A stretch of DNA of 64,000 nucleotides from IMG/VR virus record IMGVR_UViG_3300036820_000003, positions 32,001-96,000 of that record; one strand, written 5' to 3'. Shown here piece after piece: positions 6-45,472 of the stretch (position 1 is the stretch's first letter; each line of letters starts with the position of its first letter). The translations under genes were made by a program, and so were the position numbers. The stretch is from a virus. Under the pieces are notes generated by a model. It ran no database searches. It saw only the letters and a list, made by a program, of their open reading frames with translations, and was not told the origin of the DNA.

Positions 6-1202
6 GTGTCGTCCTCCCGTCCGTACGCCCGTGACCTGGAGAACGGGCTGACCCGCCAGGAGGACGCCCGGGCTCAGAAAAGGCGCGAGGCACTGGCCGA
101 GGCACTCCGGGAGGAGGGTCGGCTCGCGGCGGCGGCGAAAAATGCAGACTCCCCAGGCGTAAACAGCCCGAGGGAGGACGCTGAGGAGGCGGCGGCGGAC
201 CTGGCCGCGCGCCGGGCGGGCTGGAGGGGGCCGGAAAAGGCCCTGGGAGCCACGCTGAGCCCCCTGGAGGGGCTGGGCGGCACAATCACCCCGGAGGCCC
301 CCCTGAAGCCCGCTACGGCCCGCTCAGAGCCTCTGACGGATATCCCGACTGTCAGCCCTCAGATCAGGAATCCGAAATCGGCGACTTCCGGCGGGAAGGC
401 CCCGTTCGAGATCCGGGTCGAGCCGTGGATCCCGGCCGGATGGTCGGTCACGCACACCGAGCCCGTGAAGCCCGAGGCCCCGGAGACCCTCGACGACGTG
501 TTCGCGGAGATGCGGGAGGAGCTGGCTGCGGCGGTGCCGGGCGGCGGGGGCCAGGATGCCGTTTCCGAGGCCGCAGGGACCCCGCAGGCGGGTGCGGAGG
601 CCCCCCCGCGTGTAACGGGCGGGGGCGGGGGTCCCGAGGCTTCTGAGGGCCTCTCCGAGGCTGCGGAGCGGAAGACGTGCTCGCAGTGCGGGCACGAGCG
701 AGGGCTGGGGCAGTTCCAGCGCGACAAGCGGGCCTCGGACGGACGCAGGCCCAGCTGCAAGATCTGCACGGCGCGATATGACGCGATGAGGCGAAGTCTG
801 CGGAAATCCGCGAAAAAGGCGGTTGACGTCGCGATCGAGGCGGGTGAGGACGCGAAAAAGGCGGTTGAGGCGGAAATCGTGGCTCCGCCTCCTGAGAAGC
901 CGATTCCCAAAAAACCGGTCGCGCCCTTGAAGATCGTCAAGACCCCGAAGCCGGTGAAGGTCGTCAGGCCGGCTGACCGGCCGGTCGTGCTCCAGAAGAT
1001 CTTCCGGCCCCCGGTTGAAGACGAGATCCCCGAGCTGGAGGAGGATCTCAGCCTGCGGAAGTGCAGGTCGTGTCACGTGGGGAAGTCGGAGGAGGCGTAC
1101 TACACCCGAGCGGACGGGAGAATCAGGTCGGTCTGCAAGGAGTGCGAAATCCGGGAAAGCCGCGAGCGACGGATCGCGAGGAAGCTCCGTGAAGTTCTCT
1201 GA
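6..1202 (+). CDS. Low-complexity protein with two CxxC...CxxC zinc-binding modules
   Basis: KTCSQC...PSCKIC and RKCRSC...VCKEC modules, like the N-terminal Zn modules of phage HNH/EndoVII proteins; no catalytic domain seen; may be 5' truncated. Confidence 0.65.
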   Translation: MSSSRPYARDLENGLTRQEDARAQKRREALAEALREEGRLAAAAKNADSPGVNSPREDAEEAAADLAARRAGWRGPEKALGATLSPLEGLGGTITPEAPLKPATARSEPLTDIPTVSPQIRNPKSATSGGKAPFEIRVEPWIPAGWSVTHTEPVKPEAPETLDDVFAEMREELAAAVPGGGGQDAVSEAAGTPQAGAEAPPRVTGGGGGPEASEGLSEAAERKTCSQCGHERGLGQFQRDKRASDGRRPSCKICTARYDAMRRSLRKSAKKAVDVAIEAGEDAKKAVEAEIVAPPPEKPIPKKPVAPLKIVKTPKPVKVVRPADRPVVLQKIFRPPVEDEIPELEEDLSLRKCRSCHVGKSEEAYYTRADGRIRSVCKECEIRESRERRIARKLREVL

Positions 1203-1239
1203 GCCCGAGCCCGGCCCGGGGGCTGACGGCGACCCGGAG

Positions 1240-1902
1240 ATGTGGGTTGACGATCTGGCCGAGCCGATCCGGGCACATGAGGCTTGCCCGGAGTGCGGGT
1301 GCTCGGGGATGTCGTCAGTTGTCCGGTTCATCCCGGTGGACGCGGACGGCGGCGGGATTCTCACGCCGGAGGACTATGCACGGCGCAGGAAACGTGCTAT
1401 GCTCGAACTGTCGCGGGAGCTGGAGCGGGAAGCGGCCGAGGGACTGGACCCGGTTGACGTGTGGCTGGGGGATGAGATCGTCATGCAGGTTCTCGGACTT
1501 TCGAACGGGACCTGGAGGGCGACGATCATCGCGACCGGCGGCAACTTCGGGCAGACGAGGGTGAAGTACGGACGGGGGAGCCGGGCGCACGGGGCGAAGT
1601 CCTGGAGACACGCGCTTGCTCTCGCAAGCGCTGCGACCGAGGTCACGACCGAGGCCGAGAAGATGAACGGGATCCGGGCTTTCGAGGGGGAGCCCGGAAC
1701 CCTGATGTTCAGGAAGCAGCAGCTGAGTCACTACACGCCAGACCGGATCACGGAGCAGCAGAGAATCGAGCGGAATCTGCGGGACCGGCTGTCCCCGACC
1801 ACGGCCTGGGAGCGGCACGGCAAGCCGCAGGACAGACGCAGAAAGGCTCGGGAGGCGGCGCTGGAGTTCAGTGAAAAGCCCCCCTCAGGAGGGGAATCCT
1901 GA
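1240..1902 (+). CDS. Hypothetical protein (N-terminal CPECGC)
   Basis: ORF following the previous gene; start uncertain (GTG 1189 possible). Confidence 0.6.
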   Translation: MWVDDLAEPIRAHEACPECGCSGMSSVVRFIPVDADGGGILTPEDYARRRKRAMLELSRELEREAAEGLDPVDVWLGDEIVMQVLGLSNGTWRATIIATGGNFGQTRVKYGRGSRAHGAKSWRHALALASAATEVTTEAEKMNGIRAFEGEPGTLMFRKQQLSHYTPDRITEQQRIERNLRDRLSPTTAWERHGKPQDRRRKAREAALEFSEKPPSGGES

Positions 1903-1908
1903 GGGGGG
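1879..1908. terminator. Hairpin between convergent genes
   Basis: Perfect 12-bp stem CCCCCCTCAGGA / TCCTGAGGGGGG with 6-nt loop. Confidence 0.6.
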
Positions 1909-1924
1909 CGCGGACGGCGGGGGG

Positions 1925-2719
1925 TCAGGGAGAGACTGACTCGCGCCCCGCGTCCTGGTTCCGGAGGTGGCGGACGCCCCACGCCCGACCCGAGGCGACG
2001 GAGCTGCGATGAGCGTGCTCGTCGACGAGGCGGGCGCGGGTCGCGTCCTTGAACGGAGCGGGGCGCGTGGTCCCGGGCTCGCGAAGCGTCGCGGCCGCTC
2101 CCTGCACGAATCCGGCGATCGAGGCGCGCGTGAGACGCGTGACGTCGTAGCTGCCCTTGAAGGCGCGACCTTCCTTGCGAGCGGCGGCCCGGACGGACGC
2201 GGCGTGCGACTCGGCCTCGGGCGCTATGATGTCGTAGACGTCGTTTATCCGCTCGAAGAGAGGGAGAGGGGCGGTGACGGTCACCTGGAGAGGGCTAGCC
2301 CCGGTTGAGCGGGTTCCGCCCTGAGTGAGCTCGGCCTCGACGTTGAGCGCCTTGGCGACGGCGATGTAGCCGTACGCCCGCGCGACTCCGTGACCCGCTG
2401 ATCCGGGGATGTCACGGGTGAAGGTCTCGAGTTCGGGGGCGGTCAGCCGCTCGAACGGCTCTTTCCAGGAGTCATCCGGTTCCGGAGATGCTTCCTCGTC
2501 CTTGACTTCCTCATCAGCGGGAAGCTGCTGAACAGAGGGTACTTCCGGTTCCACCACAGGTACCTCAAGTGCCGGTACGCTCTCCTCTGCATTGTCCACC
2601 TCCTCGCTAGGATTAGCTGCGACCTGCTCCGACGCGGCTTCCTGCTCGATCGACGTATCTGCCCGGTTCGAGGCCGGGCGGAATGTGAACTTCGTGGGCT
2701 CCGGGGGGCTTGCGGTCAT
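1925..2719 (-). CDS. Hypothetical protein, acidic N-terminus
   Basis: GGAGG RBS before ATG 2719 (MTASPPEP). Confidence 0.7.
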   Translation of the reverse strand: MTASPPEPTKFTFRPASNRADTSIEQEAASEQVAANPSEEVDNAEESVPALEVPVVEPEVPSVQQLPADEEVKDEEASPEPDDSWKEPFERLTAPELETFTRDIPGSAGHGVARAYGYIAVAKALNVEAELTQGGTRSTGASPLQVTVTAPLPLFERINDVYDIIAPEAESHAASVRAAARKEGRAFKGSYDVTRLTRASIAGFVQGAAATLREPGTTRPAPFKDATRARLVDEHAHRSSVASGRAWGVRHLRNQDAGRESVSP

Positions 2720-3134
2720 AACTTCCTCCTGGTAAGGTGGGAGTTGCAGGACCGGGGGGTCGTGCAACCGGAGTGGCTTTAGGGAGTCACTCCGGTTTAA
2801 ACATAGCACACAGGACGGCGGTTGTAAACAGATGCGAGCATCCGAGTTTCCCTGCCTCCCAGGAGGCCCGTAAGCCTCGCGACCCTGCCCCCGCCCCCCT
2901 TTTACACGCGGCCCGGCCACGCGACGTCGTCAGGGGCCTCCCCGCGCCTCGGAGGCGGCTCCGGGCGGGCTACCAGCCGTGCGCCAGCGCCCAGCCCACG
3001 AATGACAGCCAGCATGCGAGAATGAGAATGAGCAGGGCGATAGTGAAGCTAGCCCTCTGCCGCAAACTCCACGACGACGGCCACATGGTTTCCAGCAGCC
3101 AGTACACGAACTCCTCGATGAGGCGGATCATCCG

Positions 3135-4433: not shown

Positions 4434-4547
4434 TCCGTCCTCCTTCTTCCTGTTCCTTCCTGCGGGCGCGCATGCGCGCCCGTAAACAGCATAGCACTCC
4501 GCAGCAAGCCGCGCAAGGGCGCGACTGCGGCGGAGTGCTATGCCCGA

Positions 4548-4721
4548 CTATTCCTCTCGACTGATGAAACTAACCTCCTGAACTGACACGAGACGCCATT
4601 CCGGCGGGATCCCGGACTGAGCCTCGACAGCGGCGTGCACGATGGACTGGCAGTCGTAATCAGCCTCGAAAATCTCGGCGTCATCGAGATTATCCACGAA
4701 TACAGCCTGATAGATAGGCAT
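4548..4721 (-). CDS. Hypothetical protein (57 aa, not in ORF track)
   Basis: MPIYQAVFVDNLDD...REE*, GAAGGA RBS. Confidence 0.6.
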   Translation of the reverse strand: MPIYQAVFVDNLDDAEIFEADYDCQSIVHAAVEAQSGIPPEWRLVSVQEVSFISREE

Positions 4722-4749
4722 CCTTCACTCCTTCCGCGAAGGCATCCTA

Positions 4750-6126: not shown

Positions 6127-6205
6127 ACCCCATTCTCCTTCCTGGCGGACTCAGCCCGCTCCGCCGACCGCCTCGAACGAGGCGGGCGACGGGCCGGGTT
6201 GAGGC

Positions 6206-8420: not shown

Positions 8421-8429
8421 GCGAGCCTC

Positions 8430-11754: not shown

Positions 11755-13128
11755 TCAGGGAATCATCATCGCGAACGCCGCCGTGTAGGGAAGCGTCCGG
11801 AACATGGAGTCGACGTTGTCGGGGATGAGCGCGACAGTCGGATCATCGACCTCCGCGCGCATGAACGGCAGGGCGGCGATGGTGCCGATGCCGTACATCT
11901 CCCGGTCCGGCAGCTTGCGGGCGACCGGGACGACGGACCCCCTGGAACCGGTGAAAACGGGCCAGGATGACGGACTGGGAACCGCCCTCATGTTCCCGGT
12001 GCGGGTGTTGCCCGCGCACACGACGACCAGGTCGTACTGGCGACGCGCCACGATGCCCCCGGCGGGGGTGTCGATTGGCTGCTCCTTGACCCGGAAGGTG
12101 CGGAGCCTGCGCTGACGGGTGAGGTCGGGGGTGTTCGGCGTGGAGAGGTCGACCGCCCGGGGAAGCTTGGCGCCGATCATCTGGTAGCGAGCCGGGGCGG
12201 TCGCCTTCCACTCCTGGCAGGTGCGCGGCAGGTTCGTGTTGTACCAGTCCACCTGGCGAATCCAGTCCAGGCCGGGCACGCTGTAATGCGACCCGAAGAT
12301 GTTCAGCGCGGACTCGACGGCGCAGTTCCCGGCGTTGCCCCTTCCGGCCCCGCCGCCGATGATCGCGACGGAGGAAATCCCCTGGAACGGGAAGGGCCGC
12401 GCCATCCGCTCCATGAACTCCCACCAGGTTTCCACGTGGAAGCGCACGTCAGGAAGCGCGAGGGCGCTCTCGTATCCCTTTCCCCGGGCGTCGACGATCC
12501 GGGCGGGGGTGATCTCCGTCCCGTTTGCAAGGCTGACCAGGTTGGTGTACCCTGAGCCGTAGGCGGCAACCGTTCCCAGCCGGACGTCCGCGTAGGCGGC
12601 GAGCGTCCAGCGAATGAGGAAGCGCATGGCGGCGTTCGTGGGGTAGTCGCCGGACTCCAGCTCGTTCGGCTGTACGACAGCGCCGGGGATGTAGTTGAGA
12701 TTAGCCTCCCGGGGCAGGCCGCCCATGCCGGGACGGGACGAGGAGTTCAGCCGGAAGACCGGCTTCCCGCCGCCGACTGCGAAGGAGCCGCCCGGCCGGT
12801 CAGTGATTACGACGGGAGGTTCTTCCCCCATCGCCGCTCGGCAGGCGGCGTAAACAGCGGAGTGGACGCCGCCCCCGATCACCAGGTCCTCGACGGGGGG
12901 GAAACCATAGATCCCGTACACCTGACCGGCCCAGTACTCGTCCAGGAGACGATCGGCGTACTCACGCGCGTCGGGATTCATGTAGATGGCGGCCAGAGTT
13001 GCGGCCCATGGGGTGCTGAACTCATCCTTCCGGGCTTCCATCAGCCCGATGAGCCGATTCTTAATCGGAGTCTTGCGAATCGTGTCCAGCGTCTTGGTGA
13101 ACCAGCCGGACGGGACAGCGAGCGCCAT
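11755..13128 (-). CDS. FAD/NAD(P)-binding oxidoreductase-like protein
   Basis: Two Rossmann motifs, LVIGGGVHSA and VAIIGGGAGRGNAG; AAGGAAGAG RBS. Confidence 0.6.
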   Translation of the reverse strand: MALAVPSGWFTKTLDTIRKTPIKNRLIGLMEARKDEFSTPWAATLAAIYMNPDAREYADRLLDEYWAGQVYGIYGFPPVEDLVIGGGVHSAVYAACRAAMGEEPPVVITDRPGGSFAVGGGKPVFRLNSSSRPGMGGLPREANLNYIPGAVVQPNELESGDYPTNAAMRFLIRWTLAAYADVRLGTVAAYGSGYTNLVSLANGTEITPARIVDARGKGYESALALPDVRFHVETWWEFMERMARPFPFQGISSVAIIGGGAGRGNAGNCAVESALNIFGSHYSVPGLDWIRQVDWYNTNLPRTCQEWKATAPARYQMIGAKLPRAVDLSTPNTPDLTRQRRLRTFRVKEQPIDTPAGGIVARRQYDLVVVCAGNTRTGNMRAVPSPSSWPVFTGSRGSVVPVARKLPDREMYGIGTIAALPFMRAEVDDPTVALIPDNVDSMFRTLPYTAAFAMMIP

Positions 13129-13266
13129 AGGCTCTTCCTTCCTACCTTTCCTGCGGATCGCTCCTGCGAACCGCACCCGACCTGGCCCTGCCAGGTCGGA
13201 TGCCGCGCTCAGGGGCGGGTGCGCGTGCTGTAAACAGCCTAGCGGTCCCGAGCCCGGGAAACCAGG

Positions 13267-17419: not shown

Positions 17420-17597
17420 TTCTTCCTTCCTTTTGCGCGTTTGCGCTGCTTTTAGCTTACACCCGCCGAGCCCCCTGCGGGCCTCGGAGAGGCACTCGGC
17501 TGCCTCGCAGGGGCGGGCCGCGCTGTTTACCATGCAGCTGCCCGCGCGAGGGGGCCGACCCCGTCACGAAAGCGACGGGGGCGACCCTCACGTTCGG

Positions 17598-19079: not shown

Positions 19080-19412
19080 CTAGAAGTCCCGCGCCGGGGC
19101 GTTGACGGTGAACTTGTCGATCCGGTAGCCGTAGAAGACGCCGTCGCCGGGGTCGGTGCGAGCCTGCCACGCGTCGTAGACGGAGGGAATCGGATTCCAG
19201 TCCAGCTTCCACGCCGTGTACTTCTCGTCCGACGTGAAAGCGTCGCCCGCCGTCGCGGCCTCCTTCTCGCGCTCGAAGTCCTGGGCCGCGCCCTTCGCCT
19301 TCTCAAGGGCGAGATCGAGCCCGGTGTCGTCGATATAGATCCCGAGTTCGATCCACTCGGCCGGGTCCGAGCCGTCCGACTCGCGAACGGACAGCAGATA
19401 AGCCGTCGTCAA
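19080..19412 (-). CDS. Hypothetical protein (paralog of 20257-20580)
   Basis: Shared L.W...W.A...GY.[IV]..FT.[ND]AP pattern. Confidence 0.65.
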   Translation of the reverse strand: MTTAYLLSVRESDGSDPAEWIELGIYIDDTGLDLALEKAKGAAQDFEREKEAATAGDAFTSDEKYTAWKLDWNPIPSVYDAWQARTDPGDGVFYGYRIDKFTVNAPARDF

Positions 19413-19594
19413 TTCGACCTCCCGTCGTGACTGATCTCGAACGTGTTGCGAGCCGTCCGGGTGATGAAGACGGTGTCCGACTGATTCGTCCAGCTCCCGA
19501 GCTTGTCAGCGTCCCGGAGGGCCTTGTCCGCCACATCGGCGGCGAGGCCGTACTCCCGGGACGTGAGCAGATCGTGCGCTTCGAAGAAGTTCAC
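19409..19594 (-). CDS. Small protein (paralog family B)
   Basis: EAHDLL...ADKALRDADKLGSWTN...FEI. Confidence 0.65.
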   Translation of the reverse strand: MNFFEAHDLLTSREYGLAADVADKALRDADKLGSWTNQSDTVFITRTARNTFEISHDGRSN

Positions 19595-19608
19595 GCTGAT
19601 TTTCCTTC

Positions 19609-20064
19609 CTAGCTGAGCGGATCCGGATTCCCGGACTCGCGGATTTCCTGCGCGAGGGCGGCGTCGGAGGCGGGATCCGAATTATCCGGATAACGCTCCT
19701 CGCCCCCGGCCTCCGTTCGCCACATCGCGTCCCGCGCCTCCTGGGTGATGAACTCCGGAGCATCACTCAGGACGCCGCTCAGATCGCGGGCGAACTTCAT
19801 CATTTCAAATCGCATGTGATCCTCGGTCTCGCCGTTGATCAGCCCGGCCTGTTCCATCATCCCCCGCAGGTACGTGACCTGCTGCTCCACGCTGAGCGGG
19901 GACGGGGCGGGAGTCCACCCCTGCGGCCGGTCCACCGCCACGTACAGAACATCCGACGGATCGGAATGCGGGTCAAGCTCGAAGACGGGACTCACGAGGC
20001 TCGCGCCTCCCGGACTCAGGTCGGTGACCGTCACCTGGAAACGTTTGGGGATCAACTTGCTCAT
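19609..20064 (-). CDS. Hypothetical protein
   Basis: ATGA overlap start MSKLIPK. Confidence 0.65.
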   Translation of the reverse strand: MSKLIPKRFQVTVTDLSPGGASLVSPVFELDPHSDPSDVLYVAVDRPQGWTPAPSPLSVEQQVTYLRGMMEQAGLINGETEDHMRFEMMKFARDLSGVLSDAPEFITQEARDAMWRTEAGGEERYPDNSDPASDAALAQEIRESGNPDPLS

Positions 20065-21415: not shown

Positions 21416-21760
21416 TCAGTTTCGGGGACGAGCGGAGTTCGGGTGCCAGGTTCCGCCTCCGCGCTTGCTCCAGTTCGGCCCGTAGGTGCTCTTGAGCAGC
21501 TCTACCTGCCCTCTCACCCCGGTGATTCCGTCGGCTGCGAGGGAGGCTCGGTCGTCCTCGTCCGGATAGCCGAGTTCAGCGGAGCGGAGGGTGAAGGCGT
21601 CGCAGTAGGCCGACAGAATCGTCTCCGGATCGCCGTCGAAGCCCGGGTGAATCATCTCGAGAATCTCGTCGTCGGTGCGAGGCACGTAAACAGGTGTCTC
21701 GGCACGCGCGTGCCCGAGGGCTGTGGCGATCTCGATGTCGTCGGGCGGCTGTGATGTCAT
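21416..21760 (-). CDS. Hypothetical protein
   Basis: GGAGAGGA RBS. Confidence 0.65.
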   Translation of the reverse strand: MTSQPPDDIEIATALGHARAETPVYVPRTDDEILEMIHPGFDGDPETILSAYCDAFTLRSAELGYPDEDDRASLAADGITGVRGQVELLKSTYGPNWSKRGGGTWHPNSARPRN

Positions 21761-30081: not shown

Positions 30082-30173
30082 GGTGCTTTCCCTCCCTTGA
30101 AGTGCGCCCGTGCGCACTGCTAGGCATGCGTCCGGGTTTGGGGGACGCATGCCAAGCGGCATGTAGGGTGCTG

Positions 30174-30554
30174 CTATTCGCATTGATCGCAGGTACCCGC
30201 TATGGGGAGCACGATGTGATGCACGTGGCAACGCGCGCCGTGCTTTGCCTGCGCTTCCGCGCGCTTGGCTATCTGCATAGTGGTCGCGCGCACCGCGAGG
30301 AAATCCTCGGAGTAGTTCTCTGGCCATTCCTTGCGCACTATCGTTTCCTTGACCACTAGCTTTACGTGGCCACGGTGTTGTTGGGTGCCGTTGGCGTACT
30401 CGCGTGGCTCGTTGTCCGCGTACTCGCCTTTAAGACCCCTACGGGTGTGGGAGTCGTCATTGCACTTGCGCCACGTCTGGACCGGGTTGCCCCGGTTCTT
30501 CTGGCCTTTGCGCTTTGACTTGCTTCCCTTACCGCGCTTGGCAGGCCTAAGCAT
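30174..30554 (-). CDS. Basic hypothetical protein
   Basis: Overlaps upstream stop; C-terminal CxxC. Confidence 0.5.
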   Translation of the reverse strand: MLRPAKRGKGSKSKRKGQKNRGNPVQTWRKCNDDSHTRRGLKGEYADNEPREYANGTQQHRGHVKLVVKETIVRKEWPENYSEDFLAVRATTMQIAKRAEAQAKHGARCHVHHIVLPIAGTCDQCE

Positions 30555-30783
30555 CGGCTATGCCAAGCGCGGTCACGTACTGCGCATCGCACCAGTAGTA
30601 GGTAAGCCCGTTGTCGCGATTGCGATTGATGAGCTTAGCCTCATAGCGCGAACGGGTGAGATGCCAGCGAGTCGCCACGGAGCCGTATCGACCGCGCATG
30701 CTATGACCGCGCGTTAGCTGACCGGTCGCGATGCAATTCATAGCCCATTGCTGGTAAGAGAGCATCTGTGTTTTTCCTTTCAT
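30547..30783 (-). CDS. Hypothetical protein; first gene of the leftward block
   Basis: AAGGAAAAA before the internal ATG of MLSYQQW. Confidence 0.55.
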   Translation of the reverse strand: MKGKTQMLSYQQWAMNCIATGQLTRGHSMRGRYGSVATRWHLTRSRYEAKLINRNRDNGLTYYWCDAQYVTALGIADA

Positions 30784-31855
30784 GGTTACCCATAGTGCAG
30801 GCCGGAGGATTGCTCATCCGGCATGCGCCACGGGTGAGGAATGAGAGGCATAGCTCCGCTACGCTACGGGAAAGGATTACCCGCGCAGTCATTCCCCACC
30901 CATGCAAGGATAGGAAAGAAAGGCATCAATATGTCTAGGCGCGTTCGACCGCGCTTCCACCCCTCCCCTTTCAGGGTTGCCTTATTGCGTCACGCGCACT
31001 TTCATGCGCCCGCATGCACTCTTTTCAGCATGCTTTGGATTCCCTACCCACTACACCACACCAATGCCGAGTAATACCCCCGTAAAGCAAGGTAAAAGCC
31101 CGGTAAAGGCATCCGCAGCCTCTCGGTTCGCCGCCGTGAATTGCGCGAAACGCGCAGTGACAATTCTCGCACTTTCCCGCTATTGCTGACCGGTCACCAT
31201 TGCTGGTTTCGGCCCACTACCCTATTGCGTATCATCGCGCAAATAATCGGATCGGGTGTCTGCTTTACCTTTCGCAAGCCCATAGATGAAAGACATTGGG
31301 TGACCGCCATTCCGCCATACAGGCCGGCAGTTACAAGATCACCCGCACGCTATTCGGGGTTACTAAGGGTTGCCCAAATTCGTAGGCTAGCAACGCCGCG
31401 CGCAGTCTAGGACTGCGCACGTGGGATGGAATTTGTATGCCCTACGCGGAATTGACCCGCGCATGAATAGGGCAGAAGAATCGTATGCGCACCTCCGCCC
31501 GGTCAGCTTGCGCCGCCCGTTCGGTGGGGCATGGCTACAGTCAACCACACATGCGCGGAATTGCACCTAACGGCTAGGCCACGAACGTATAACGGGAAGG
31601 TAACGCTCATAAAGGGGTCTCACAGCCACGTAGGCGCATGCAGAAGTCTTCCCGTGTGATCCGCCTACGGTCTACCCATGCGCGCGTCCTAGACCCCTCC
31701 CAGAGTCAGCAAGGCGCATCTACAGGCCGTCCCAGAATGCGCCTGAGAGTACGTGCGCGCCTGGTGAGCGAGTGCGCATCACCAGGCGCGCACGCCATTC
31801 GGTCGAATGCGCGGCGTGCGTCTAGGTGCCTTTGCGGAGCCCGCCGCCTAGCCTG

Positions 31856-31893
31856 CCTAGATACTAGGTAACCTAGTATCTAGGTAACCTAGT
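31856..31893. repeat. CTAG-rich perfect inverted repeat with nested direct repeat
   Basis: CCTAGATACTAGGT-A-ACCTAGTATCTAGG (14-1-14); CTAGGTAACCTAGT at 31864 and 31880. Confidence 0.9.
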
Positions 31894-32437
31894 GTTTGCA
31901 CATGCAACTAGTTTCAGATGCCAGCGAGCCGGCCGGCTTGGTAGGGAATTGCATTCACGATCATGAATTCAGCAATTTGTCAAGCGCCTATATACACATT
32001 CATAAATGCAGCGCATTGTCAAATGCCTATGCCTGATTTGGAGGGATTTGGGGCATATGCCCGGTTTGAGTACGTTTGGGCGGGTTTGGGTGGTTTCACC
32101 AGCGGCCGGCCCCCAAACTCGCGCCCCCCGTTTTCACCTTTCATTTGCGTAAACAGCCCAATGGTATAGGCGTAAACACGTCGTTAGCAAGACTAATTGA
32201 CTGAGCGGTACAAAAAGATAACAGCAAGAAGAAACTCTTCTTGCTGTTATCAGAACGCAAAAAATACCCTTCCCTCACCTCCCGAAAGTAATAGACCGTT
32301 CGGTCCAAAGCGTAAACACCCCCTCCGCCTCAACCCTCGCCCGCAAAAAAAGAGGCCGCCCTCCCCCGGACGACCTCCTCCACCTGGAATCAAAATGCGT
32401 AAACAGCGCCAATTCACGTCACCTGACATCCAAAGTG

Positions 32438-32923
32438 TCATGCATTCCCATCCCCGTCCGACGTGATCGCCCTCAGCAGCTCAGCGTAACTCCCCTCCCA
32501 CCTCCACATAACCCCGGCCACCCTCCCGCACGCACACCAGATCCGAGCCTCAATTCCATTCACGCGCTCATCCTCGGCGAACGACCCGCCCCACTCCGTC
32601 CACACGGCGTCCGTCCAATCACATCGCTCCCAGTCCACCTCGCACCCGACCCCCGTCTCCAGACCCTGCGTCCACTCCGCAACGACTCCGAGCTGGAACT
32701 CAGTCGCGGCCGCCTCTCGAATGAACGCAGGCACATTCAGATGAGCCCCCAGCCCCATCCAGTCTCGATGACGATCCGCGTTGTAGTAACTCACTCCCGG
32801 CTCAACCGGCGTCCCTCGCTCCACAATCACCCGCAGCAAAGCCCTTCGGAACTCCGCCTTCCAACCCGACTCGCCCGCACCCGCACCCGCACCCGCACCC
32901 GCACCCGCACCCGCACCCGTCAC
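32438..32923 (-). CDS. Hypothetical protein with (GA)n N-terminus
   Basis: CCCGCA hexamer tandem repeat at about 32876-32917 encodes the GAGAGA tract. Confidence 0.6.
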   Translation of the reverse strand: MTGAGAGAGAGAGAGAGESGWKAEFRRALLRVIVERGTPVEPGVSYYNADRHRDWMGLGAHLNVPAFIREAAATEFQLGVVAEWTQGLETGVGCEVDWERCDWTDAVWTEWGGSFAEDERVNGIEARIWCACGRVAGVMWRWEGSYAELLRAITSDGDGNA

Positions 32924-32927: not shown

Positions 32928-33308
32928 TCACTCCTTCCACGTCCCTCGCAGCCTGGAAACCCCTCGCGTAAACAGCTCCGAATCGAACGCCGGGAAGCCC
33001 GAGCCTTCCCTCTCGGCCTCCCCGGCGCGTAAACAGCCCGACGTCACAGCTCCCCGGACCGCTTCCCTCAGCCTACACCACCCCCGCCCCCGACCCGTCA
33101 GCGGCCCCCCGGTAACCCACTTCCCCGAGGCACCCCCCCAGTCCTCGGCCGACATCTCCGCGATCATCTCCCACACCGGCATCGCGCCCGGACCGTCGCA
33201 CCCTTTCCGCCATCCGGTGTGCAAAGTCTCCGCCAGCAGACTCAACCGCTCCGACTCCTCCGCCCGGAAAACATCCGTTCGAAAACACTTTCGACCCGCC
33301 CGCCTCAT
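32928..33308 (-). CDS. Hypothetical protein
   Basis: ATGA overlap start. Confidence 0.45.
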   Translation of the reverse strand: MRRAGRKCFRTDVFRAEESERLSLLAETLHTGWRKGCDGPGAMPVWEMIAEMSAEDWGGASGKWVTGGPLTGRGRGWCRLREAVRGAVTSGCLRAGEAEREGSGFPAFDSELFTRGVSRLRGTWKE

Positions 33309-33541
33309 CCGATTTCCTCGAAGACGATTCGCACGACTGGCAGCACGTTCGCCGACCCGATAAGGGGCTCCAGCCGCGTAAACAGCCCCTCCGCCACGCG
33401 ACCGTAAAACTCCCAGTGCGACCCCGCCCCCGCCTCCTTCTGTCGCGCGTACCGACCGCACTTCTCCGCCATCCCGTCCCCGCACAGTTCCAGATGCAGC
33501 GCGTCCGCGAGCGACTCCGTCCCGTCAGTTCCCCCCGCCAT
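33305..33541 (-). CDS. Hypothetical protein
   Basis: One-base TGATG overlap with the pth2 stop. Confidence 0.5.
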   Translation of the reverse strand: MAGGTDGTESLADALHLELCGDGMAEKCGRYARQKEAGAGSHWEFYGRVAEGLFTRLEPLIGSANVLPVVRIVFEEIG

Positions 33542-36506: not shown

Positions 36507-37786
36507 GAGGTTTCCTTCCTTTTCGCCGCGCGATACGCCGCGCGAATGTACACGTACTGACGAGCCAGGGAATAGGCCAGATCCGGCAGAATCAGCACCG
36601 TCGAGGCAATCGCCTTCCAGCCTGCTTTCCGAGCCTGGAACGCCTGTTCCAGAATCACGAGCGCGATCCCGATGAAGTAGTAAGGCGCGTTCACCGGATT
36701 AATCCCGCGCCAGCCGAACAAGTAGAACGACCAGCCGAGGTACACCAGCACCATCGGGGTGGCGAGCATCACAGCGTATGTCAGCACTTGACGAACAATC
36801 TGCTCGCGAGTCACTCGCGTCCAGCCGTACGCTCGCAGGGCGATGAGGGTGCCGTGCTGCCATCGTAGACGCTGGCTGTACCAGTCGCTCACGGTTTCCA
36901 TCACGTCGGTCAGCACCTGGCAGTTGGACGGCGCAACTGTCTTGACTCCGAGCTTCTTCAGTCGCAAGGTCAGCTCGTAGTCCTCGACAATCGAGCGCAC
37001 GTCGTAAACAGCTCCGTCGGGACGACTAGCGCAGACCTGGCGCATGACCCCAACCGGGATGGCCCATCCGGTTCCGCTCAGCACGTCGCACAGCGTCCTG
37101 CGATGCTGATGCCGAGCGAAGCGGGCGAACTCCGCGCGCTGCAACAGTCCCAGCAGGCCACCGCCCCTCCGCCCGTGGAAAGTCGCCCCCACTGCTCCGT
37201 ATCCAGCGTCCAGCCAGCGCAGGGCGTTCCGGATGAAGTTCGCGTCCGGAACCGAGTCGGCATCAAATCCGCATATCACGTCTTCGTCTTCCAGCCACGG
37301 CAGCAGCATCGCGAGACTGCGGTTCAAGTTACCCGCCTTGCGATCCTGATTCCCGATCGTGCACGTGATCGACACCGGGAAGCGCGCCGCCTCCTCGGCC
37401 AGCCCAGGGACGGCGTTGTCGGTGAGGACGTACACCTCATCTGGCTCGCGACTCTGAGTGAGCACCGCGCTGAGAGTCGCGCCCAGCTGCTCCACCTCGT
37501 TGTGAGCCGGAATCAGCACCACGACTTTTCGCGCACGCAGAGGTGACGGCGGCGGGAGAGGCTCACCCGGCACTGCGACTAGATCACAGCTGGTGACGCG
37601 CTCCCACGGCGCACGCTCCGTCACTCGCCTCCGACGCGGTAGCGTCGGAGCCGGAGCCTCCTCCCAGCGAGCACCTTCATCGAACAACTGCTCGAGCTGG
37701 TCAATCTCCGCCTTCACCTCGGGCGGGGGATGCGGCTCCGCGTACACCGGCATCTCAACAGTCGGATCCTGCTCTTCCGCGTTCAT
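36482..37786 (-). CDS. Processive family 2 glycosyltransferase (PgaC/IcaA/hyaluronan-synthase-like)
   Basis: LIPAHNE, DADS, LSGTG, VEDYELT, QRLRW and C-terminal TM helices; GGAAGGA RBS before MNAEEQ. Confidence 0.88.
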   Translation of the reverse strand: MNAEEQDPTVEMPVYAEPHPPPEVKAEIDQLEQLFDEGARWEEAPAPTLPRRRRVTERAPWERVTSCDLVAVPGEPLPPPSPLRARKVVVLIPAHNEVEQLGATLSAVLTQSREPDEVYVLTDNAVPGLAEEAARFPVSITCTIGNQDRKAGNLNRSLAMLLPWLEDEDVICGFDADSVPDANFIRNALRWLDAGYGAVGATFHGRRGGGLLGLLQRAEFARFARHQHRRTLCDVLSGTGWAIPVGVMRQVCASRPDGAVYDVRSIVEDYELTLRLKKLGVKTVAPSNCQVLTDVMETVSDWYSQRLRWQHGTLIALRAYGWTRVTREQIVRQVLTYAVMLATPMVLVYLGWSFYLFGWRGINPVNAPYYFIGIALVILEQAFQARKAGWKAIASTVLILPDLAYSLARQYVYIRAAYRAAKRKETSWGAGTSI

Positions 37787-37796: not shown

Positions 37797-38174
37797 TCAC
37801 AGCAGGCTCGGGTTGCGCCTTTGCTGTAAATACAGCATACCACGCCCAGCCGGCGCGAAGCGTCGGCCGAGGGCTCGGGGGGCTTCAATTGCAACTGGAA
37901 AACAGCCGCGTAAACAGCCACCCGCTTCTCGACTCCGGAGCATCCCAGCGAAAATCTCGTCCGGATCATCCACCGGATATGCCGGACTGACGGAGTATCC
38001 CCAGGCGGACGCCGCCATCCCCTCCAGAACTACCGGATCCTCCCGGGATCCGGCGTCCAGCTCCTCGCGCACTCGCCTGTCCATCCAGGTCACGGCCTCA
38101 ACCCAGCGTTCACTGGTGACGACTTCGAGGGGAGGAGAATCCGGGTCCGGCATCCCACGCCACAGCCAGCTCAT
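37797..38174 (-). CDS. Hypothetical protein
   Basis: GAAGGAGA RBS. Confidence 0.55.
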   Translation of the reverse strand: MSWLWRGMPDPDSPPLEVVTSERWVEAVTWMDRRVREELDAGSREDPVVLEGMAASAWGYSVSPAYPVDDPDEIFAGMLRSREAGGCLRGCFPVAIEAPRALGRRFAPAGRGMLYLQQRRNPSLL

Positions 38175-39189: not shown

Positions 39190-39418
39190 GCAGTTCCTCC
39201 CGGGCGGGATTCGATTGCATCTGCGTCCTTTCATCTTCGGGCGCTAGAATGATGCAGCAGCGCTCACCCGCAGGACCCGTCACGTCCAGCGTCCAGCCGT
39301 CCTCGCGAACTCGCATCTCCTCCCTGACGACCGTCACGTCGGAGGGAAGCACCGACTCCACGTAAACAGCTATTCGTCTAGCGAACTCGTAGTTCGGATC
39401 CGAATTCGGCTCAGGCAT
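39173..39418 (-). CDS. Hypothetical protein
   Basis: AAGGAG RBS. Confidence 0.6.
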   Translation of the reverse strand: MPEPNSDPNYEFARRIAVYVESVLPSDVTVVREEMRVREDGWTLDVTGPAGERCCIILAPEDERTQMQSNPAREELHDRKY

Positions 39419-39698
39419 CTGAATCTGACTCCTTGTCGGGGACGTTCCTCGAACCCTGGAAACGGGGCGCGTAAACAGCAGGCTGGAAGAAGAGGGACGG
39501 AGCGTCGAAAACAGTTTCGAAGTGGGGCGGGGCGAGGGTGAGCGTGAGACCGGTGATGCAGCCGAAGCGCAGGATGTCGGCGATGTTCGGATTCTGATTC
39601 GGAATTCCGAGCCAGGTGACGGCCTCGACGCGACGACCTCGGAATAGGGCTCCGGGACGGGGGACTGGACGAGGGATGTAGTTGAGAGTGAGCTGCAT
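39411..39698 (-). CDS. Hypothetical protein
   Basis: ATG 39698 overlapping upstream stop. Confidence 0.5.
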   Translation of the reverse strand: MQLTLNYIPRPVPRPGALFRGRRVEAVTWLGIPNQNPNIADILRFGCITGLTLTLAPPHFETVFDAPSLFFQPAVYAPRFQGSRNVPDKESDSDA

Positions 39699-41510: not shown

Positions 41511-41617
41511 GGATGTCCTTCCTACGTTGGAAGGGCTTGCGGCCGCAAGCCCATGCGTAAAACCTACAGCATACGACCGCGCGCCGCAACCTTTTGATGC
41601 GGTGCGCGGTCAGTCGG

Positions 41618-42397: not shown

Positions 42398-42479
42398 GCT
42401 CTTCCTTCCGTAAACCCTCTGTGTGGGGGCGTGTGCGTAAACAGCCTACAGCCGCCGACTTCGCGATGCAAGGGGCAGG

Positions 42480-43703
42480 CTAAGGGAGCGACGGCAGCGT
42501 GACGCCCGCCTCCTGCAGACGGGTTTTGATGTGATTGATCAGATGATACAGATCCCTGCAGTAAACGGACGGATTGTCGAATGATCCGACTCCGTTCTCG
42601 GTCGTCATGTAGCGATTCGGATAGTAGCCTCCTCCGCACACGTCGAAGACGGGACAAGTCTGGCAGACGGCTGACGGAGCGGGAGGCGTGTACCCCGGAT
42701 GGAGGGCTATCTGGTCAAGGGTGGAGGTTCGAACTGAGAGACCTGTGGCGGAGCCTCCGTCCGCTGTGGAGCGGAGAGCGTCCAGCAACTCGGCGGAGCC
42801 GTCGGCGTTCACCGCGAGGGAACGAGATCGAGGCGGAGGGCCGATGAAGCCGGCGCGCACATCGCGTCCCAGCAGACGACTGATGATGATGCGGAAGAGG
42901 CGGATCTGAGGGGCTCCCGGATCCAGGTACCAGGCGTCGAAAATATTTTCGAGCCAATCAGACGTCCCTGCGGCAGGAGGGCGATCCCATGTCTTCAGGC
43001 GAGGCAGCAGATCCAGCATCGGCGGGGACTGCGAGCGCAGGAACCTGTACGTCTCCACGGGATCGGAGTCGAGATTGACCACCGCCAGCAGACCCCCGTA
43101 ACTGGAAGTCCAGCGCGGGGAGCGCAGCAGGGCGAGGGCGTCCAGAACCTGAGACGTCGAGGAGGATCCGCTTTTGAAGGGACGATGCGAATTCTGGGCG
43201 TCGTTGCCGTCCAGGCTCACGCCGAAGCGAATCCCGGCTGGCGCGAGCGTCGTCAGCATGTCCTCGGTGAGGAGCGTCGCGTTGGTCTGCATGCTGAAGG
43301 TGAGAGTGGTTCCGGGGGGCGCCTCCGCTTTGAACGCGCTGACGATGTCGAGGATGCGAGCGGGACCCGCCAGCAGCGGCTCGCCTCCGTGCAGGATGAC
43401 GCGGAAGCGAGGGACGCTGTGGGAGCGCAGGTAGGTGCCCAGACGCGCCGCGAGGGTCAGGTAGATCGAGGGGGATATGAATCTGGGCTGGACGAGCCAG
43501 CTAGTATCCGCGAGGGAGTACATGTAGCAGTAATCGCAGTCCAGATTGCAGCGCGACGCTATCTTGAGCACAAGCTCGCTAAATATCGGAGTTGAAGGGG
43601 GTGTCGGGACTGATCTTCGACTGGAAGAGGGAATCAGGGGCTGAGTCGTTTTCGTCTCTGATCGCGTTGTTGAAGGGGTAGATATCCGGGCTGTCGCTTC
43701 CAC
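42480..43703 (-). CDS. fxsB: FxsB-family cyclophane-forming radical SAM/SPASM peptide maturase
   Basis: LVLKIASRCNLDCDYCYMY, LHGGEPLL, MQTNA, GVSLDG, CQTC...CGGGYY.NRY, FDNPSVYCRDL; GGAGGAG RBS. Confidence 0.88.
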   Translation of the reverse strand: MEATARISTPSTTRSETKTTQPLIPSSSRRSVPTPPSTPIFSELVLKIASRCNLDCDYCYMYSLADTSWLVQPRFISPSIYLTLAARLGTYLRSHSVPRFRVILHGGEPLLAGPARILDIVSAFKAEAPPGTTLTFSMQTNATLLTEDMLTTLAPAGIRFGVSLDGNDAQNSHRPFKSGSSSTSQVLDALALLRSPRWTSSYGGLLAVVNLDSDPVETYRFLRSQSPPMLDLLPRLKTWDRPPAAGTSDWLENIFDAWYLDPGAPQIRLFRIIISRLLGRDVRAGFIGPPPRSRSLAVNADGSAELLDALRSTADGGSATGLSVRTSTLDQIALHPGYTPPAPSAVCQTCPVFDVCGGGYYPNRYMTTENGVGSFDNPSVYCRDLYHLINHIKTRLQEAGVTLPSLP

Positions 43704-43752
43704 AAGAGGTCTCCTCCAGGATGACGGCGAGGGGGGTGATGGCGATGGGCAT
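43579..43752 (-). CDS. fxsA: FxSxx-COOH (FxsA-like) RiPP precursor, 57 aa, three cores (not in ORF track)
   Basis: MPIAITPLAVILEETSCGSDSPDIYPFNNAIRDENDSAPDSLFQSKISPDTPFNSDI*; GAAAGG RBS; ends in FNSDI. Confidence 0.85.
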   Translation of the reverse strand: MPIAITPLAVILEETSCGSDSPDIYPFNNAIRDENDSAPDSLFQSKISPDTPFNSDI

Positions 43753-43776
43753 GAGACGGCTGCCTTTCGTTGCGGG

Positions 43777-44580
43777 CTATCTGAGGGTGCGGGTGTCGAT
43801 GAGGCGGATGTTGGAGTCGTTGCCGTCGTAGTGCAGGCCGGTCACCAGGACGGGAGGGGCGTTGACCAGAGCGCGCTCGTGCAGCGTCTCGTGGAAGAGA
43901 TGATAGTGCCCGTGGAACACCCGGGTGACTTTGGTTCTGATGGCGATGTCCTGCAGGAGCCGGGAGTGCTGACGCGCGATGTGAATCATCGGCTTCCAGG
44001 ACTCGTGCGGGCGCGGGAGCGACGGGACCCAGCAGTCCGGCACGTCATGCGAGAGCAGCACGTCGGCCGGTCCGTCGGCGATGATTGAGTCGGCCTGCTC
44101 GCGGGTGATCTGCTCGTCCGGCCACCAGTCCACCCCCTCGGTTCGAGAGTGACGATCGACGCTGACCGCGCCTCCGACCGCGAGCCAGGTCTTCGAATTC
44201 CAGTTCCAACGAGTGCCGCGAGGGAGATAGCTGATCGCTTGGAATCCGCGCAGTCGCAGCGGGTAGTCGTGAGGCTGCTCGTAAGCTGCGAGCAGCTCTT
44301 GGATTTCGGGCCACCACTCGTGATTCCCGTCGATCCACCACAGCTCCATCCCGAGTTCGACCAGAGCGTTGTCGAGCTGCTGGATGGGCATGAGCCCGGC
44401 GGTCCAAGCGGCGGGCTCCATCAGCTTGAATCCGAAGTCGCCCAGCTGGATGACGATCTTCCGAGTCTCCCCGGCCTGGGCGAACTGGCCGTCGAGAGCC
44501 TCCAGGGCGTGCAGGGTCCACTTCAGATTCCCGTGCACGTCGCCGAGGAGTCCCACGAACTCGGGATCCTTGTCTTCCAT
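43777..44580 (-). CDS. Calcineurin-like metallophosphoesterase
   Basis: GDVHG, GDFG, GNHE, SHD, HGHYH. Confidence 0.88.
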   Translation of the reverse strand: MEDKDPEFVGLLGDVHGNLKWTLHALEALDGQFAQAGETRKIVIQLGDFGFKLMEPAAWTAGLMPIQQLDNALVELGMELWWIDGNHEWWPEIQELLAAYEQPHDYPLRLRGFQAISYLPRGTRWNWNSKTWLAVGGAVSVDRHSRTEGVDWWPDEQITREQADSIIADGPADVLLSHDVPDCWVPSLPRPHESWKPMIHIARQHSRLLQDIAIRTKVTRVFHGHYHLFHETLHERALVNAPPVLVTGLHYDGNDSNIRLIDTRTLR

Positions 44581-44664
44581 TCGTCCTTCCGTCCTTCCGT
44601 GGGAGGGGGCGGGCTGCGCCCGCCCCCTCACTATATACCCGCGTGCGCGCGTGCGCGCGGGGGA

Positions 44665-45387
44665 TCAGGCGTCGGAGTCGGAGCCGGGAATCAGCCTCGA
44701 GCGCAGGGTGCGCGGGATGCTCGGGGTGACCTTGACGGACGCGATGGTCGCGCCGTGCTCCAGACGCAGACGTGCGACGGCCGTGGCGACGGCCGCCGCA
44801 GCTCGCTCCTTGGCGACCTGCTCGCGCTGGGCTTGGCCGTAGTCGGACGGGAAGGCCGTCAGCGGCACGTCAAGCTCATGAGTCGTGATGACCCGGACGC
44901 GCATGACGGCGAGGGGAGCGGAGGGGGCTGACGAGGCGGATTCAGGCTTCAGGATGCTGATCAGTTCCTTGCGCAGGTGAGCGGGAATCTCGTAATCGTC
45001 GATCCTCTCGCTGCTCAGATAGCCGATCATGCCGCTCCGCCAGGCCTCCCCCTGCGCGCGGAAGGCGCTGAGCCGGGTCTCCAGGACGGCGGACGTGTCA
45101 TCCGCTCCGGCGGGGGGCAGGGGGACGTCGTAGACTGCCTGCTGACGGATGTGCTCCTCATCGAACTGGCTGTTGCGTCCCGGGATGCGCGGGACGCCGC
45201 GCGCTCGCAGCCAGTCGTTGGTGCCTTCGTGACACGGACCCGGGCCGCCGAAGTACACGCGCATCTTGTGCGCGTAGCGCGCCACCTCCACTCTCCAGGT
45301 GATCTGCCGGACGCGCTCCGCGTCGAGGGCGGACTGCAGCTCCTCCTGACGGGAAGGGCGGGGCGGGGATTCAATTGTCTCGGTCAT
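44665..45387 (-). CDS. Hypothetical protein
   Basis: GGAAGGAA RBS before MTETIE. Confidence 0.7.
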   Translation of the reverse strand: MTETIESPPRPSRQEELQSALDAERVRQITWRVEVARYAHKMRVYFGGPGPCHEGTNDWLRARGVPRIPGRNSQFDEEHIRQQAVYDVPLPPAGADDTSAVLETRLSAFRAQGEAWRSGMIGYLSSERIDDYEIPAHLRKELISILKPESASSAPSAPLAVMRVRVITTHELDVPLTAFPSDYGQAQREQVAKERAAAAVATAVARLRLEHGATIASVKVTPSIPRTLRSRLIPGSDSDA

Positions 45388-45472
45388 TGCGTTCCTTCCG
45401 GGTGCTTGCGTTTGCCGCACTTTTAGTGTACTGGCGGGGAGGTGGCGCGTAAACAGCTTTGACGGGGTTGAG

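Follow-up and report, generated by a model that had tools for sequence, protein, structure and literature searches.

An oriented 11-bp word in the early leftward gene block of a large uncultured actinophage is most likely bound by a transcription regulator

An 11-bp, non-palindromic word, GCTGTTTACGC, is dispersed in one orientation through the early leftward gene block of a large actinophage, and its most likely role is to bind a transcription regulator. The window analysed here is a stretch of 64,000 nucleotides, positions 32,001 to 96,000 of IMG/VR virus record IMGVR_UViG_3300036820_000003, and coordinates are those of the window. As to what the word does, we give an even chance to the reading that a phage regulator uses the copies as operators and roadblocks, much as the stoperators of mycobacteriophages act. 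Networks of oriented words are already known from other phages, and the kind is not new.

On the plus strand the word reads GCGTAAACAGC, of which GCTGTTTACGC is the form in gene direction, and 11 exact copies occur, at 157, 12848, 32147, 32397, 32966, 33027, 33376, 37908, 39469, 42435 and 45447. All of these positions had been listed in an earlier note made from the letters of the window. No further exact copy is found on either strand across the whole 129,940-bp genome; in the window, the note had noticed no full copy beyond 45.5 kb. One-mismatch copies start at 4480, 32310, 37002 and 39360 and two-mismatch copies at 2823, 13228, 21684 and 32170, within one base of where such near copies had been noticed, and the reverse partial copy at 17522 is likewise present. 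Altogether there are 11 exact and about 13 one- or two-mismatch copies, and the 7-bp core is found 28 times, GTAAACA lying 25 times on the plus and 3 times on the minus strand versus 1.6 expected per strand. A chance origin is ruled out: for the exact word, dinucleotide shuffles predict 0.01 copies and a third-order Markov model predicts 0.016 (P 6e-28). The ribosome-binding site excepted, it is the most over-represented word of the genome. A literature search for it returned primer sequences only.

Where copies lie within genes they do impose minor codons (GTT, 11% of Val codons; GCT, 17% of Ala; TTT, 10% of Phe); the earlier note had them force AT-rich codons. They fall in two different reading frames: A-V-Y for the exact copy at 12848..12858 within a 473-aa gene and for the one-mismatch copy GCTGTTTACGA at 37002..37012 in the gene of a GT2 glycosyltransferase, and L-F-T for the exact copy at 33376..33386, in the 3′ part of a 78-aa ORF with a degenerate GTTTTACGG 20 bp upstream (all on the minus strand). 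The constraint thus acts at the level of the DNA and not of the peptide. A repeat at the peptide level (A-V-Y-A..F-Q) is ruled out by the two frames, by the many non-coding copies and by the codons being invariant as well as rare.

The strand bias of the word tracks transcription, not replication. Between 1.9 and 45.4 kb the window is a single leftward gene block; 21 core copies point with the local gene direction versus 3 against it (P 1.4e-4), and four more, in divergent gaps, each face the gene that they precede, which brings the co-oriented total to 25 of 28. In the left arm of the genome the degenerate copies switch strand together with their genes, and those on the other strand lie 28-38 nt before plus-strand genes. 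One clear exception is the exact copy at 157..167 (minus strand), which is antisense within a plus-strand gene of 453 aa. This copy, and the fact that all 11 exact copies share one strand, would be expected of a polar replication, recombination or packaging signal (Chi-like, KOPS-like or pac-like) or of a strand-specific nicking site, and a polar replication or packaging signal was among the three options of the earlier note. However, copies that follow gene direction on both strands, intergenic enrichment and fixed positions relative to promoters (see below) are foreign to such a signal; the copies are moreover confined to 45 kb in mid-genome, the early block, instead of being chromosome-wide, and 11 bases are far longer than known Chi or KOPS words. 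We regard a signal of this type as extremely improbable.

With genes called by a home-made codon-usage caller, 14 of the 28 core copies are intergenic, as are 5-7 of the 11 exact ones, in a genome of which 17% is non-coding (P 7e-5 and about 1e-3 to 5e-3, respectively), so that the earlier impression that many copies lie in ORFs is only partly right. Most copies are 28-120 nt upstream of start codons, with the ribosome-binding site between, and three contexts can be told apart: the −35 of the first leftward promoter, fusion to the −10 of five promoters, and promoter-free positions, often paired. The phage has a recurrent promoter type, TTGNNN-N17-TA(T/G)GCT, some members of which carry the box and others do not, and at seven sites the word is physically joined to a −10 or a −35 hexamer. 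It lies on the −35 of P_L (45447) and of a promoter at 2824, the latter overlap having come independently from a consensus scan, and on the −10/+1 of TA(T/G)GCT promoters at 42435, 13228 and 4480 and of two in the left arm; TA.GCT stands immediately before GTTTAC in 5 of the 19 GCTGTTTAC copies (P 2.9e-5).

The block opens at P_L, where the exact copy at 45447..45457 (minus strand) supplies TTTACG as the −35, followed after a spacer of 17 by the −10 TACACT (45425-45430). A divergent promoter, P_R (TTGCGG-N18-TATGCT, 45473..45502, plus strand), has the same copy 16 bp upstream of its −35; no box follows its −10, and it precedes three tRNAs and the rightward genes. Further into the block, on the minus strand throughout, an exact copy is fused to a −10 at 42435..42448 (TTGCAT-N17-TAGGCT directly followed by GTTTACGC), 37 nt before the start of a 259-aa gene, and a second GGTTTACGG follows 18 nt downstream. 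Similar fusions are intergenic at 13228..13241 (TAGGCT and GTTTACAG; the 473-aa gene starts 51 nt further on) and at 4480..4493 (TTGCGC-N17-TATGCT and GTTTACGG; a 432-aa gene starts 46 nt further on), and a −10 TATGCT is joined to degenerate boxes at 41555..41573 (GTAGGTTTTACGC) and at 37824..37839 (GTATTTACAG, where the GT2 gene starts after 48 nt). The promoter of the block's last gene, at 2800..2833, contains the variant TCTGTTTACAA, whose TTTACA serves as the −35 of TTTACA-N17-TATGTT.

The remaining copies, also on the minus strand, stand apart from promoter hexamers. An exact copy followed by GTTTTCCAG (37892..37918) precedes the TATGCT promoter of the gene for the glycosyltransferase by about 65-75 bp, and a two-mismatch copy, CCTGTTTACGT, is found in a 114-aa ORF (21684..21694). 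At 39442..39479 the word heads a 38-nt composite, GCTGTTTACGC-N5-GTTTCCAGG-N3-CGAGGAACGT, in the 3′ end of a 95-aa ORF and 50 nt before the next start codon, with a one-mismatch copy, GCTGTTTACGT, 109 bp downstream of the 39469 copy in an 81-aa ORF (39360..39370). Two other exact copies share the composite, at 32939..32976 and 32370..32407, whereas most copies have only the 11 bases in common. The first of these precedes the final gene of the P_L operon, which starts with GTG, by 42 nt, and 61 bp upstream of the 32966 copy is another exact one (33027..33037), in a stretch of doubtful coding status. The second lies directly between the stop codon of the last gene and a first, terminator-like intrinsic hairpin with a T run (32351..32367); next come the one-mismatch copy GGTGTTTACGC (32310..32320), a strong intrinsic terminator with a 16-bp stem and T run (32217..32251), and a pair of copies 23 bp apart (CGTGTTTACGC and an exact one, 32147..32180) facing a non-coding island of 2.3 kb. 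Seven copies thus lie at the operon end, among terminators and beyond or around its last gene. They make up the cluster at 32.1-33.4 kb already noticed in the window, which proves to consist of five exact and two near copies, spaced irregularly at 23, 140, 87, 569, 61 and 349 bp.

Such a cluster could suggest that a replication initiator binds the copies in the manner of iterons, with the origin in the island and the initiator doubling as a transcription factor, as with DnaA boxes. DnaA boxes and the iterons of plasmids and phages are asymmetric sites for a monomer, and the likeness lies in asymmetric sites clustered beside a non-coding region and present in promoters too: seven copies in the same orientation flank an island that is repeat-rich and lower in GC, and this placement is kept in the relative G001. 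The irregular spacing (23-569 bp) of copies spread over 45 kb, an orientation tied to transcription on both strands, fixed promoter positions and the distance of 30 kb to the replication genes set the word apart from such sites, and 13 copies of GTAACACC within 460 bp beside the DNA polymerase gene are a better candidate for the origin. The same 9-mer occurs in an iteron array of locus L281, but this array was picked out by the very pattern used for searching and carries no weight. The iteron option of the earlier note therefore appears improbable, and the iteron, packaging, Chi-like and RNA-structure readings are all weak.

A more serious question is whether the word is itself a promoter, or a core module of one, which host RNA polymerase would recognise with the help of a phage factor, in which case every copy would start a transcript, including short RNAs and transcripts that run into the island. 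Host RNA polymerase is used with a phage factor at the MotA boxes and late promoters of T4, and the MotA box, an asymmetric site of 9-10 bp (TGCTTtA-like), replaces the −35 at middle promoters of this lytic phage. At two or three sites the word indeed occupies the −35 position like a MotA box. The distance of most copies to start codons, the fusion to hexamers at seven sites, the longer 38-nt element common to three copies, and the copies past the last gene, which each precede a terminator or the island in the manner of small transcription units, would all suit a promoter. Unlike MotA boxes, however, most copies are not at a −35 and many have no −10 downstream. The word takes three registers relative to the hexamers (−35, −10/+1 or none), the essential A of a −10 is missing in the stand-alone copies, and some copies are deep within genes (12848, 37002, 21684). 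Nor does a host SigA-type core (TTGNNN, 17 ± 1 bp, TANNNT) account for the word, which is found in two registers with it, most exact copies being without TANNNT at the right distance. No recognisable sigma factor is encoded: searches found neither a Sigma70_r2 domain nor a T7-type RNA polymerase, and a single r4-like match was the small terminase, though the PF00940 search was weak, its control remaining silent. Overall, we consider the promoter reading possible but doubtful. Among consensus readings that were rejected, a sigma-54-like one (CTGGAA-N7-GC) is one base off register, and Actinobacteria are not known to have sigma-54; for ECF, SigF and WhiG the spacings do not fit.

The word is also present in the sense of the mRNA, mostly 30-60 nt before start codons, which would be compatible with an RNA-level signal in polycistronic early transcripts, either a processing or cleavage site or the site of a translational regulator. 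Against this, no conserved secondary structure was found around the word, at the promoter-fused copies most of the word would precede the transcript start, and the P_L copy, being the −35 itself, would not be transcribed from P_L. A role in RNA is in our opinion very improbable.

The only close relative, G001, has structural genes of 65-80% nucleotide identity. Its P_L/P_R region keeps AGCTGTTTACG and both −10 hexamers (TTTACG-N17-TACTAT), as well as GGTGTATGCT of P_R, while the spacers and the surrounding sequence have diverged; three copies are retained, too, where its P_L operon, of different gene content, has its distal end, and GTAAACAGCT is its top non-repetitive 10-mer. The word was not found in three genomes of about 60% terminase identity (G002, G003 and G005), in which other words are over-represented. 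A two-copy pattern retrieved from IMG/VR G001 and, besides, arrays of iterons or promoters that are unrelated and owe their selection to the pattern; the composite pattern had no match there, and a metagenome scan gave single chance matches only. Searches anchored on proteins, namely a 368-aa protein, the phosphoesterase (by itself and also as a profile) and the product of the first leftward gene, matched homologues on contigs of 130-186 kb and recovered no further close relative. Since one relative only carries the word, the support from conservation is thin. That both phages have the word at both ends of the P_L operon, with different genes inside, and that three copies share about 38 nt of flank, might point to boundary or recombination sequences, or to remnants of small mobile cassettes, serving module swapping between related phages. 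But homologous exchange needs more than 11 bases, no similarity extends past these in most copies, and the fixed register with promoter hexamers would be left unexplained; the chances of this reading seem slim indeed.

The closest parallels are the stoperator systems. In Cluster A mycobacteriophages, the L5-type repressors (L5 gp71, the TipsytheTRex repressor) act on operators plus oriented stoperators (PMC9283540), and R4-type Streptomyces phages have a comparable system (PMC10276819). Cluster A systems are marked by more than 20 dispersed copies of an asymmetric site of about 13 bp, correlated in orientation with transcription and located in the early promoter and short intergenic spaces, and by a bound repressor that halts elongation in one orientation only. 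Here, too, a short asymmetric word is present in two dozen copies, within promoters and short intergenic gaps and also 3′ of genes, and its orientation tracks transcription (21 versus 3, and the four copies in divergent gaps). Unlike in Cluster A, the word has 11 bases instead of 13 and an unrelated sequence, and its copies are found only in the early block, with the greatest density where one operon has its distal end. Compared with CGTGTAAACG, from a temperate actinobacterial phage, the GTTTAC/GTAAAC core is alike and the flanking bases differ. Strict membership in the stoperator class is not borne out: a six-frame search with L5 gp71 (N-terminal HTH plus stoperator domain) gave no match at E up to 10, neither a tyrosine nor a serine integrase was found in the genome, and among 185,579 species genomes searched for prophage relatives the best terminase match is less than 50% identical. 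The phage, an uncultured one from soil with a genome of 130 kb (129,940 bp), is probably lytic.

Of the three options in the earlier note, an asymmetric, stoperator-like protein-binding site is the one that stands, on the grounds of co-orientation, intergenic enrichment, promoter overlap and the footprint in the relative. From the statistics, the positions relative to hexamers and start codons and this conservation, we infer that a protein binds the word and that repression would be the effect. One sequence-specific DNA-binding regulator, probably phage-encoded, would bind the asymmetric GCTGTTTACGC; bound over a promoter hexamer (the −35 of P_L and of 2824, or the −10/+1 of the TA(T/G)GCT promoters), it would stop host RNA polymerase from initiating. 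The stand-alone and often paired copies may act as an orientation-dependent roadblock or insulator, densest at the distal end of the P_L operon, where they are interleaved with two terminators and face the central non-coding island. Taken together, this would amount to a timed shut-off of the early leftward block, with P_R and the promoter of the DNA-modification operon, both box-free, staying on. Some points weigh against the operator reading: as the phage looks lytic, a silencing network has no immunity context, and seven copies are placed around or past the operon's last gene, where nothing remains to be silenced. In addition, the exact copies are mostly without promoter hexamers, and in the promoter-fused ones the final two bases vary, so that a pair of overlapping signals instead of a single one is conceivable.

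If operator or roadblock sites are indeed present without a lysogeny module, oriented operator networks might be a general timing tool and not just a device of prophage immunity. A concrete regulatory map of a lineage of large uncultured actinophages emerges, with one promoter type, a divergent P_L/P_R region and an oriented word by which early promoters with the box are set apart from promoters without it.

As regards the protein that would read the word, a Pfam search of the block's 92 proteins gave no HTH. The sole XRE protein of the genome, encoded at genome positions 19299-19877, models as an HTH with a long coiled coil, which suggests a dimer that would suit palindromes, and fold and profile searches with it retrieved no Cluster A repressor. 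The product of the first leftward gene, an orphan with no DNA-binding signal, was discarded, and a SprT-like protein is absent from this phage. A parS half-site bound by ParB, which the earlier note had among its proposed binders, is rejected as well: ParB here belongs to the thymine-dioxygenase cluster, and ParBs tied to 5mYOX enzymes have no obvious DNA-binding domain (PMC13229309). One candidate, as a lead only and judged from its sequence, is a 199-aa Cys4 zinc-ribbon protein encoded by the second gene of the rightward operon (46821..47420, plus strand), which matches PHROG 1568 ‘DNA binding protein’ (E 2.5e-5), has an ortholog of 48-50% identity in G001 and yields a structure model of low confidence (pLDDT 63.5). 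One could imagine an apparently lytic phage with hypermodified DNA that runs a stoperator-like network without lysogeny or a gp71-type repressor, in which the zinc-ribbon protein, made from the box-free P_R, lands on GCTGTTTACGC, shuts P_L and the box-bearing internal promoters, and forms oriented roadblocks that, with the two terminators, shield the island from early transcription; in its entirety we think this scheme unlikely. The word itself is a short, specific sequence with which the reader protein could be fished out.

The 11-mer GCGTAAACAGC (reading GCTGTTTACGC along leftward genes) occurs in 11 exact copies in the window, all on the + strand, whereas dinucleotide shuffles predict 0.01 copies, and no further exact copy is present on either strand in the rest of the 129,940-bp genome. 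Under a third-order Markov model the expectation is 0.016 (P = 6e-28), and the word and its sub-words lead the genome in over-representation, their sole rival being the complement of the ribosome-binding site. A one-mismatch search gave 16 sites, 15 of them on the + strand, and the 7-mer GTAAACA is found 25 times on the + and three times on the - strand, for 1.6 expected per strand. The repeat that an earlier note had picked out by eye thus holds against a Markov background (11 versus 0.016), with number, strand and coordinates of the exact copies all reproduced and every near copy recovered.

The source genome, taken from IMG/VR, has direct terminal repeats; the window spans its bases 32001-96000, and its genes were called with a codon-usage model trained on its own long ORFs. 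Positions 1925-45387 form a single leftward block of ~92 genes, mostly small orphans, broken by a non-coding island at 30.1-32.4 kb; Pfam searches of this block gave almost no matches, and none to an HTH. From 46 kb, rightward genes comprise tRNAs, a thymine-modification cluster, terminase and portal, and the left arm of the genome holds replication genes (DNA polymerase A, primase-helicase, SNF2 helicase, nuclease). Since no integrase of the tyrosine or serine type was found in the genome, no terminase above ~49% identity is present in bacterial genomes of 185,579 species, and phosphoesterase matches are to actinophages only, the phage is probably a lytic actinophage. No close isolated phage was found.

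The strand bias of the word tracks transcription. Core copies (TGTTTAC, n = 28) are co-oriented with local genes in 21 cases and not in three (P = 1.4e-4), and four lie in divergent gaps, each facing the gene that it precedes. Left-arm copies flip strand with their genes, as degenerate forms are on the opposite strand and precede genes of the + strand by 28 and 38 nt. The rule is clearly broken by the exact copy at 157, antisense in a + strand gene, and by partial copies at 17522 and 55215. Many copies had been thought to lie in ORFs and to force codon choice; the codons used by in-gene copies are indeed minor ones (GTT is 11% of Val codons, GCT 17% of Ala and TTT 10% of Phe), but one in two core copies falls between genes, versus 17% of the genome being non-coding (P = 7e-5). 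Because in-gene copies combine minor codons with the use of two reading frames, the constraint is at the nucleic acid level and not on the peptide. RNAalifold on five copies detected no shared RNA fold around the word, and we regard RNA-level, recombination-boundary and Chi, packaging or nick readings each as very improbable.

Part of the copies are tied to promoters. At P_L, the first leftward promoter of the early block, TTTACG of the word at 45447 forms the -35, followed by 17 bp and TACACT, and a variant word occupies the -35 at 2824 (TTTACA-N17-TATGTT), a site independently recovered by a consensus scan. Listing every intergenic TA(T/G)GCT revealed a recurrent phage promoter type, TTGNNN-N17-TA(T/G)GCT, with ~13 co-oriented examples. 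In five TA(T/G)GCT promoters (window 42435, 13228 and 4480; genome 21689 and 25745), GTTTAC directly follows the -10, and the word shares its initial GCT with the end of that hexamer; TA precedes GCTGTTTAC at the right place in 5 of 19 copies, whereas its frequency is 0.02 (P = 2.9e-5). Promoters at 41555-41573 and 37824-37839 carry a degenerate form of the word, or box. Box-free promoters are the divergent rightward P_R (TTGCGG-N18-TATGCT), that of the ParB/modification operon at 49916 (TTGACA-N17-TATGCT), and three in the left arm. A protein bound to the word over the -35 or the -10/+1 would repress initiation.

For most exact copies, no TANNNT lies at a plausible spacing. Such stand-alone copies are often paired, with 21-109 bp between them, and three copies have in common a 38-nt element, GCTGTTTACGC-N5-GTTTCCAGG-N3-CGAGGRACGT. 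The P_L operon has seven copies at its distal end, three in the final 950 bp of coding sequence and four past the last stop codon, the latter interleaved with two intrinsic terminators (32367-32351 and 32251-32217) and facing the non-coding island. The last gene of this operon has a (Gly-Ala)n N-terminus corresponding to eight tandem CCCGCA units (32874-32919). Features of the island itself (30100-32430; 2.3 kb, lower in GC) are ACTAGGTAACCTAGT palindromes in tandem, repeats of TTGTCAA..GCCTAT and a GC hairpin with a 13-bp stem. It also has, at 30556-30790 on the - strand, a short and unusually GC-poor ORF that is absent from the gene calls but comes with a ribosome-binding site, gaaaggaaaaacacagATG.

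Only one close relative reaching the word region was found, IMGVR_UViG_3300031759_000043 (48.7 kb, syntenic; terminase identity 81%, structural genes 65-80% nucleotide identity), whose contig covers just 12 kb of the leftward block. Its top non-repetitive 10-mer is GTAAACAGCT, with four copies on the + and none on the - strand, in the same positions as in the window phage: on the -35 of P_L (TTTACG-N17-TACTAT) and at the far end of a P_L operon that is half as long, has different inner genes and there carries three copies, one followed by ATTCCAG and one directly after a hairpin. In the P_L/P_R alignment, AGCTGTTTACG and both -10 hexamers are conserved islands amid diverged sequence. The non-coding island is syntenic but unalignable save for a 28-nt stretch (30905-30932) of 96.6% identity. 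Relatives at ~60% terminase identity have other over-represented words instead of this one, and regulatory words seem to be private to each lineage; searches of IMG/VR, metagenomes and the genome collection gave no further carrier. The words of these relatives are GAGTAGCGTAGCAT (nine on +, four on -), CTGAGCTA (11/0) and ATGAGTAA (8/0) in G005 (L232-L234), and GGGTTCCTCT in G002 (L221-L226).

Three registers relative to the promoter hexamers together with off-promoter copies, orientation with transcription and base-for-base conservation favor a protein-binding site, which would explain the word better than a promoter element. A factor-dependent promoter, which we consider unlikely, could account for the start-codon distances and for the small 'units' past the last gene, but it leaves the three registers unexplained and no sigma factor or polymerase is recognisable. 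Among the options of the earlier note, the stoperator-like site is therefore favored, and the polar signal is not. Nor is the iteron, or a DnaA-box-like element, for which we see little chance: the conserved cluster does adjoin a repeat-rich island, but spacing is irregular, copies are tied to transcription, and a far better array exists elsewhere, with 13 copies of GTAACACC in 460 bp beside the polymerase gene. That array, in both orientations and often doubled (GTAACACCGTAACACC), lies between the genes for DNA polymerase A and its neighbour (L097:11275-11740, genome 31275-31740, 262-725 bases before the window start) and is the best candidate for a replication origin or other operator array. 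A textbook origin was seen in an unrelated viral contig (L281:11050-11300), at the end of a RepB-primase/DUF3987 gene, where inverted sets of tandem GCTGTTTACT(T/G) iterons flank an AT-rich core; this contig was picked out by the search pattern itself and has no bearing on the window.

We give an even chance to the word forming an operator and roadblock network by which a lytic phage times the shut-off of its early genes. Oriented operator networks are already known: Cluster A mycobacteriophages have >20 asymmetric 13-mer stoperators in promoters and short gaps, at which a monomeric repressor has its effect in one orientation only (PMC9283540). The stand-alone oriented copies resemble these, but reader protein and life style do not fit that family, as a six-frame search gave no match to L5 gp71 and the window phage has no integrase. 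What sets the present case apart is the apparently lytic context with no known repressor type, the clean divide between box-bearing and box-free promoters, and the piling up of copies with terminators at an operon end.

The lead for a putative reader, from sequence, is a 199-aa protein (46821-47420, +) that has a Gly-rich linker and, at its C-terminus, a zinc ribbon of the Cys4 type (CPYC...CVNPSC). It has a weak match to PHROG 1568 'DNA binding protein' (E = 2.5e-5), is conserved at 48-50% identity in the close relative, and has actinobacterial and actinophage clusters as language-model neighbours; its structure model was too poor for a fold search. The gene is on the box-free rightward side of the control region, from where its expression is predicted. 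The genome encodes a single XRE-type HTH protein, P0122 (192 aa; genome 19299-19877, L235:1351-1929, +), with 16 homologues at 27-34% identity in a library of 1.8 billion proteins. It was rejected as a gp71-like two-domain repressor, its confident model (pLDDT 90; an HTH, then four long helices with a long coiled coil) resembling instead small dimeric XRE regulators, and it would better suit the TCGAAA-N4-TTTCGA palindromes of the same block. These number six exact copies and two with one mismatch (25510, 33279, 34271, 35395, 38265, 38659, 39505 and 42937), and resemble the actinobacterial LexA box, TCGAAC-N4-GTTCGA; they could be bound by the coiled-coil XRE protein or by host LexA. Two of the palindromes are followed by gcggatGTTTTCC(AG), and the same GTTTTCCAG follows several of the 11-mers.
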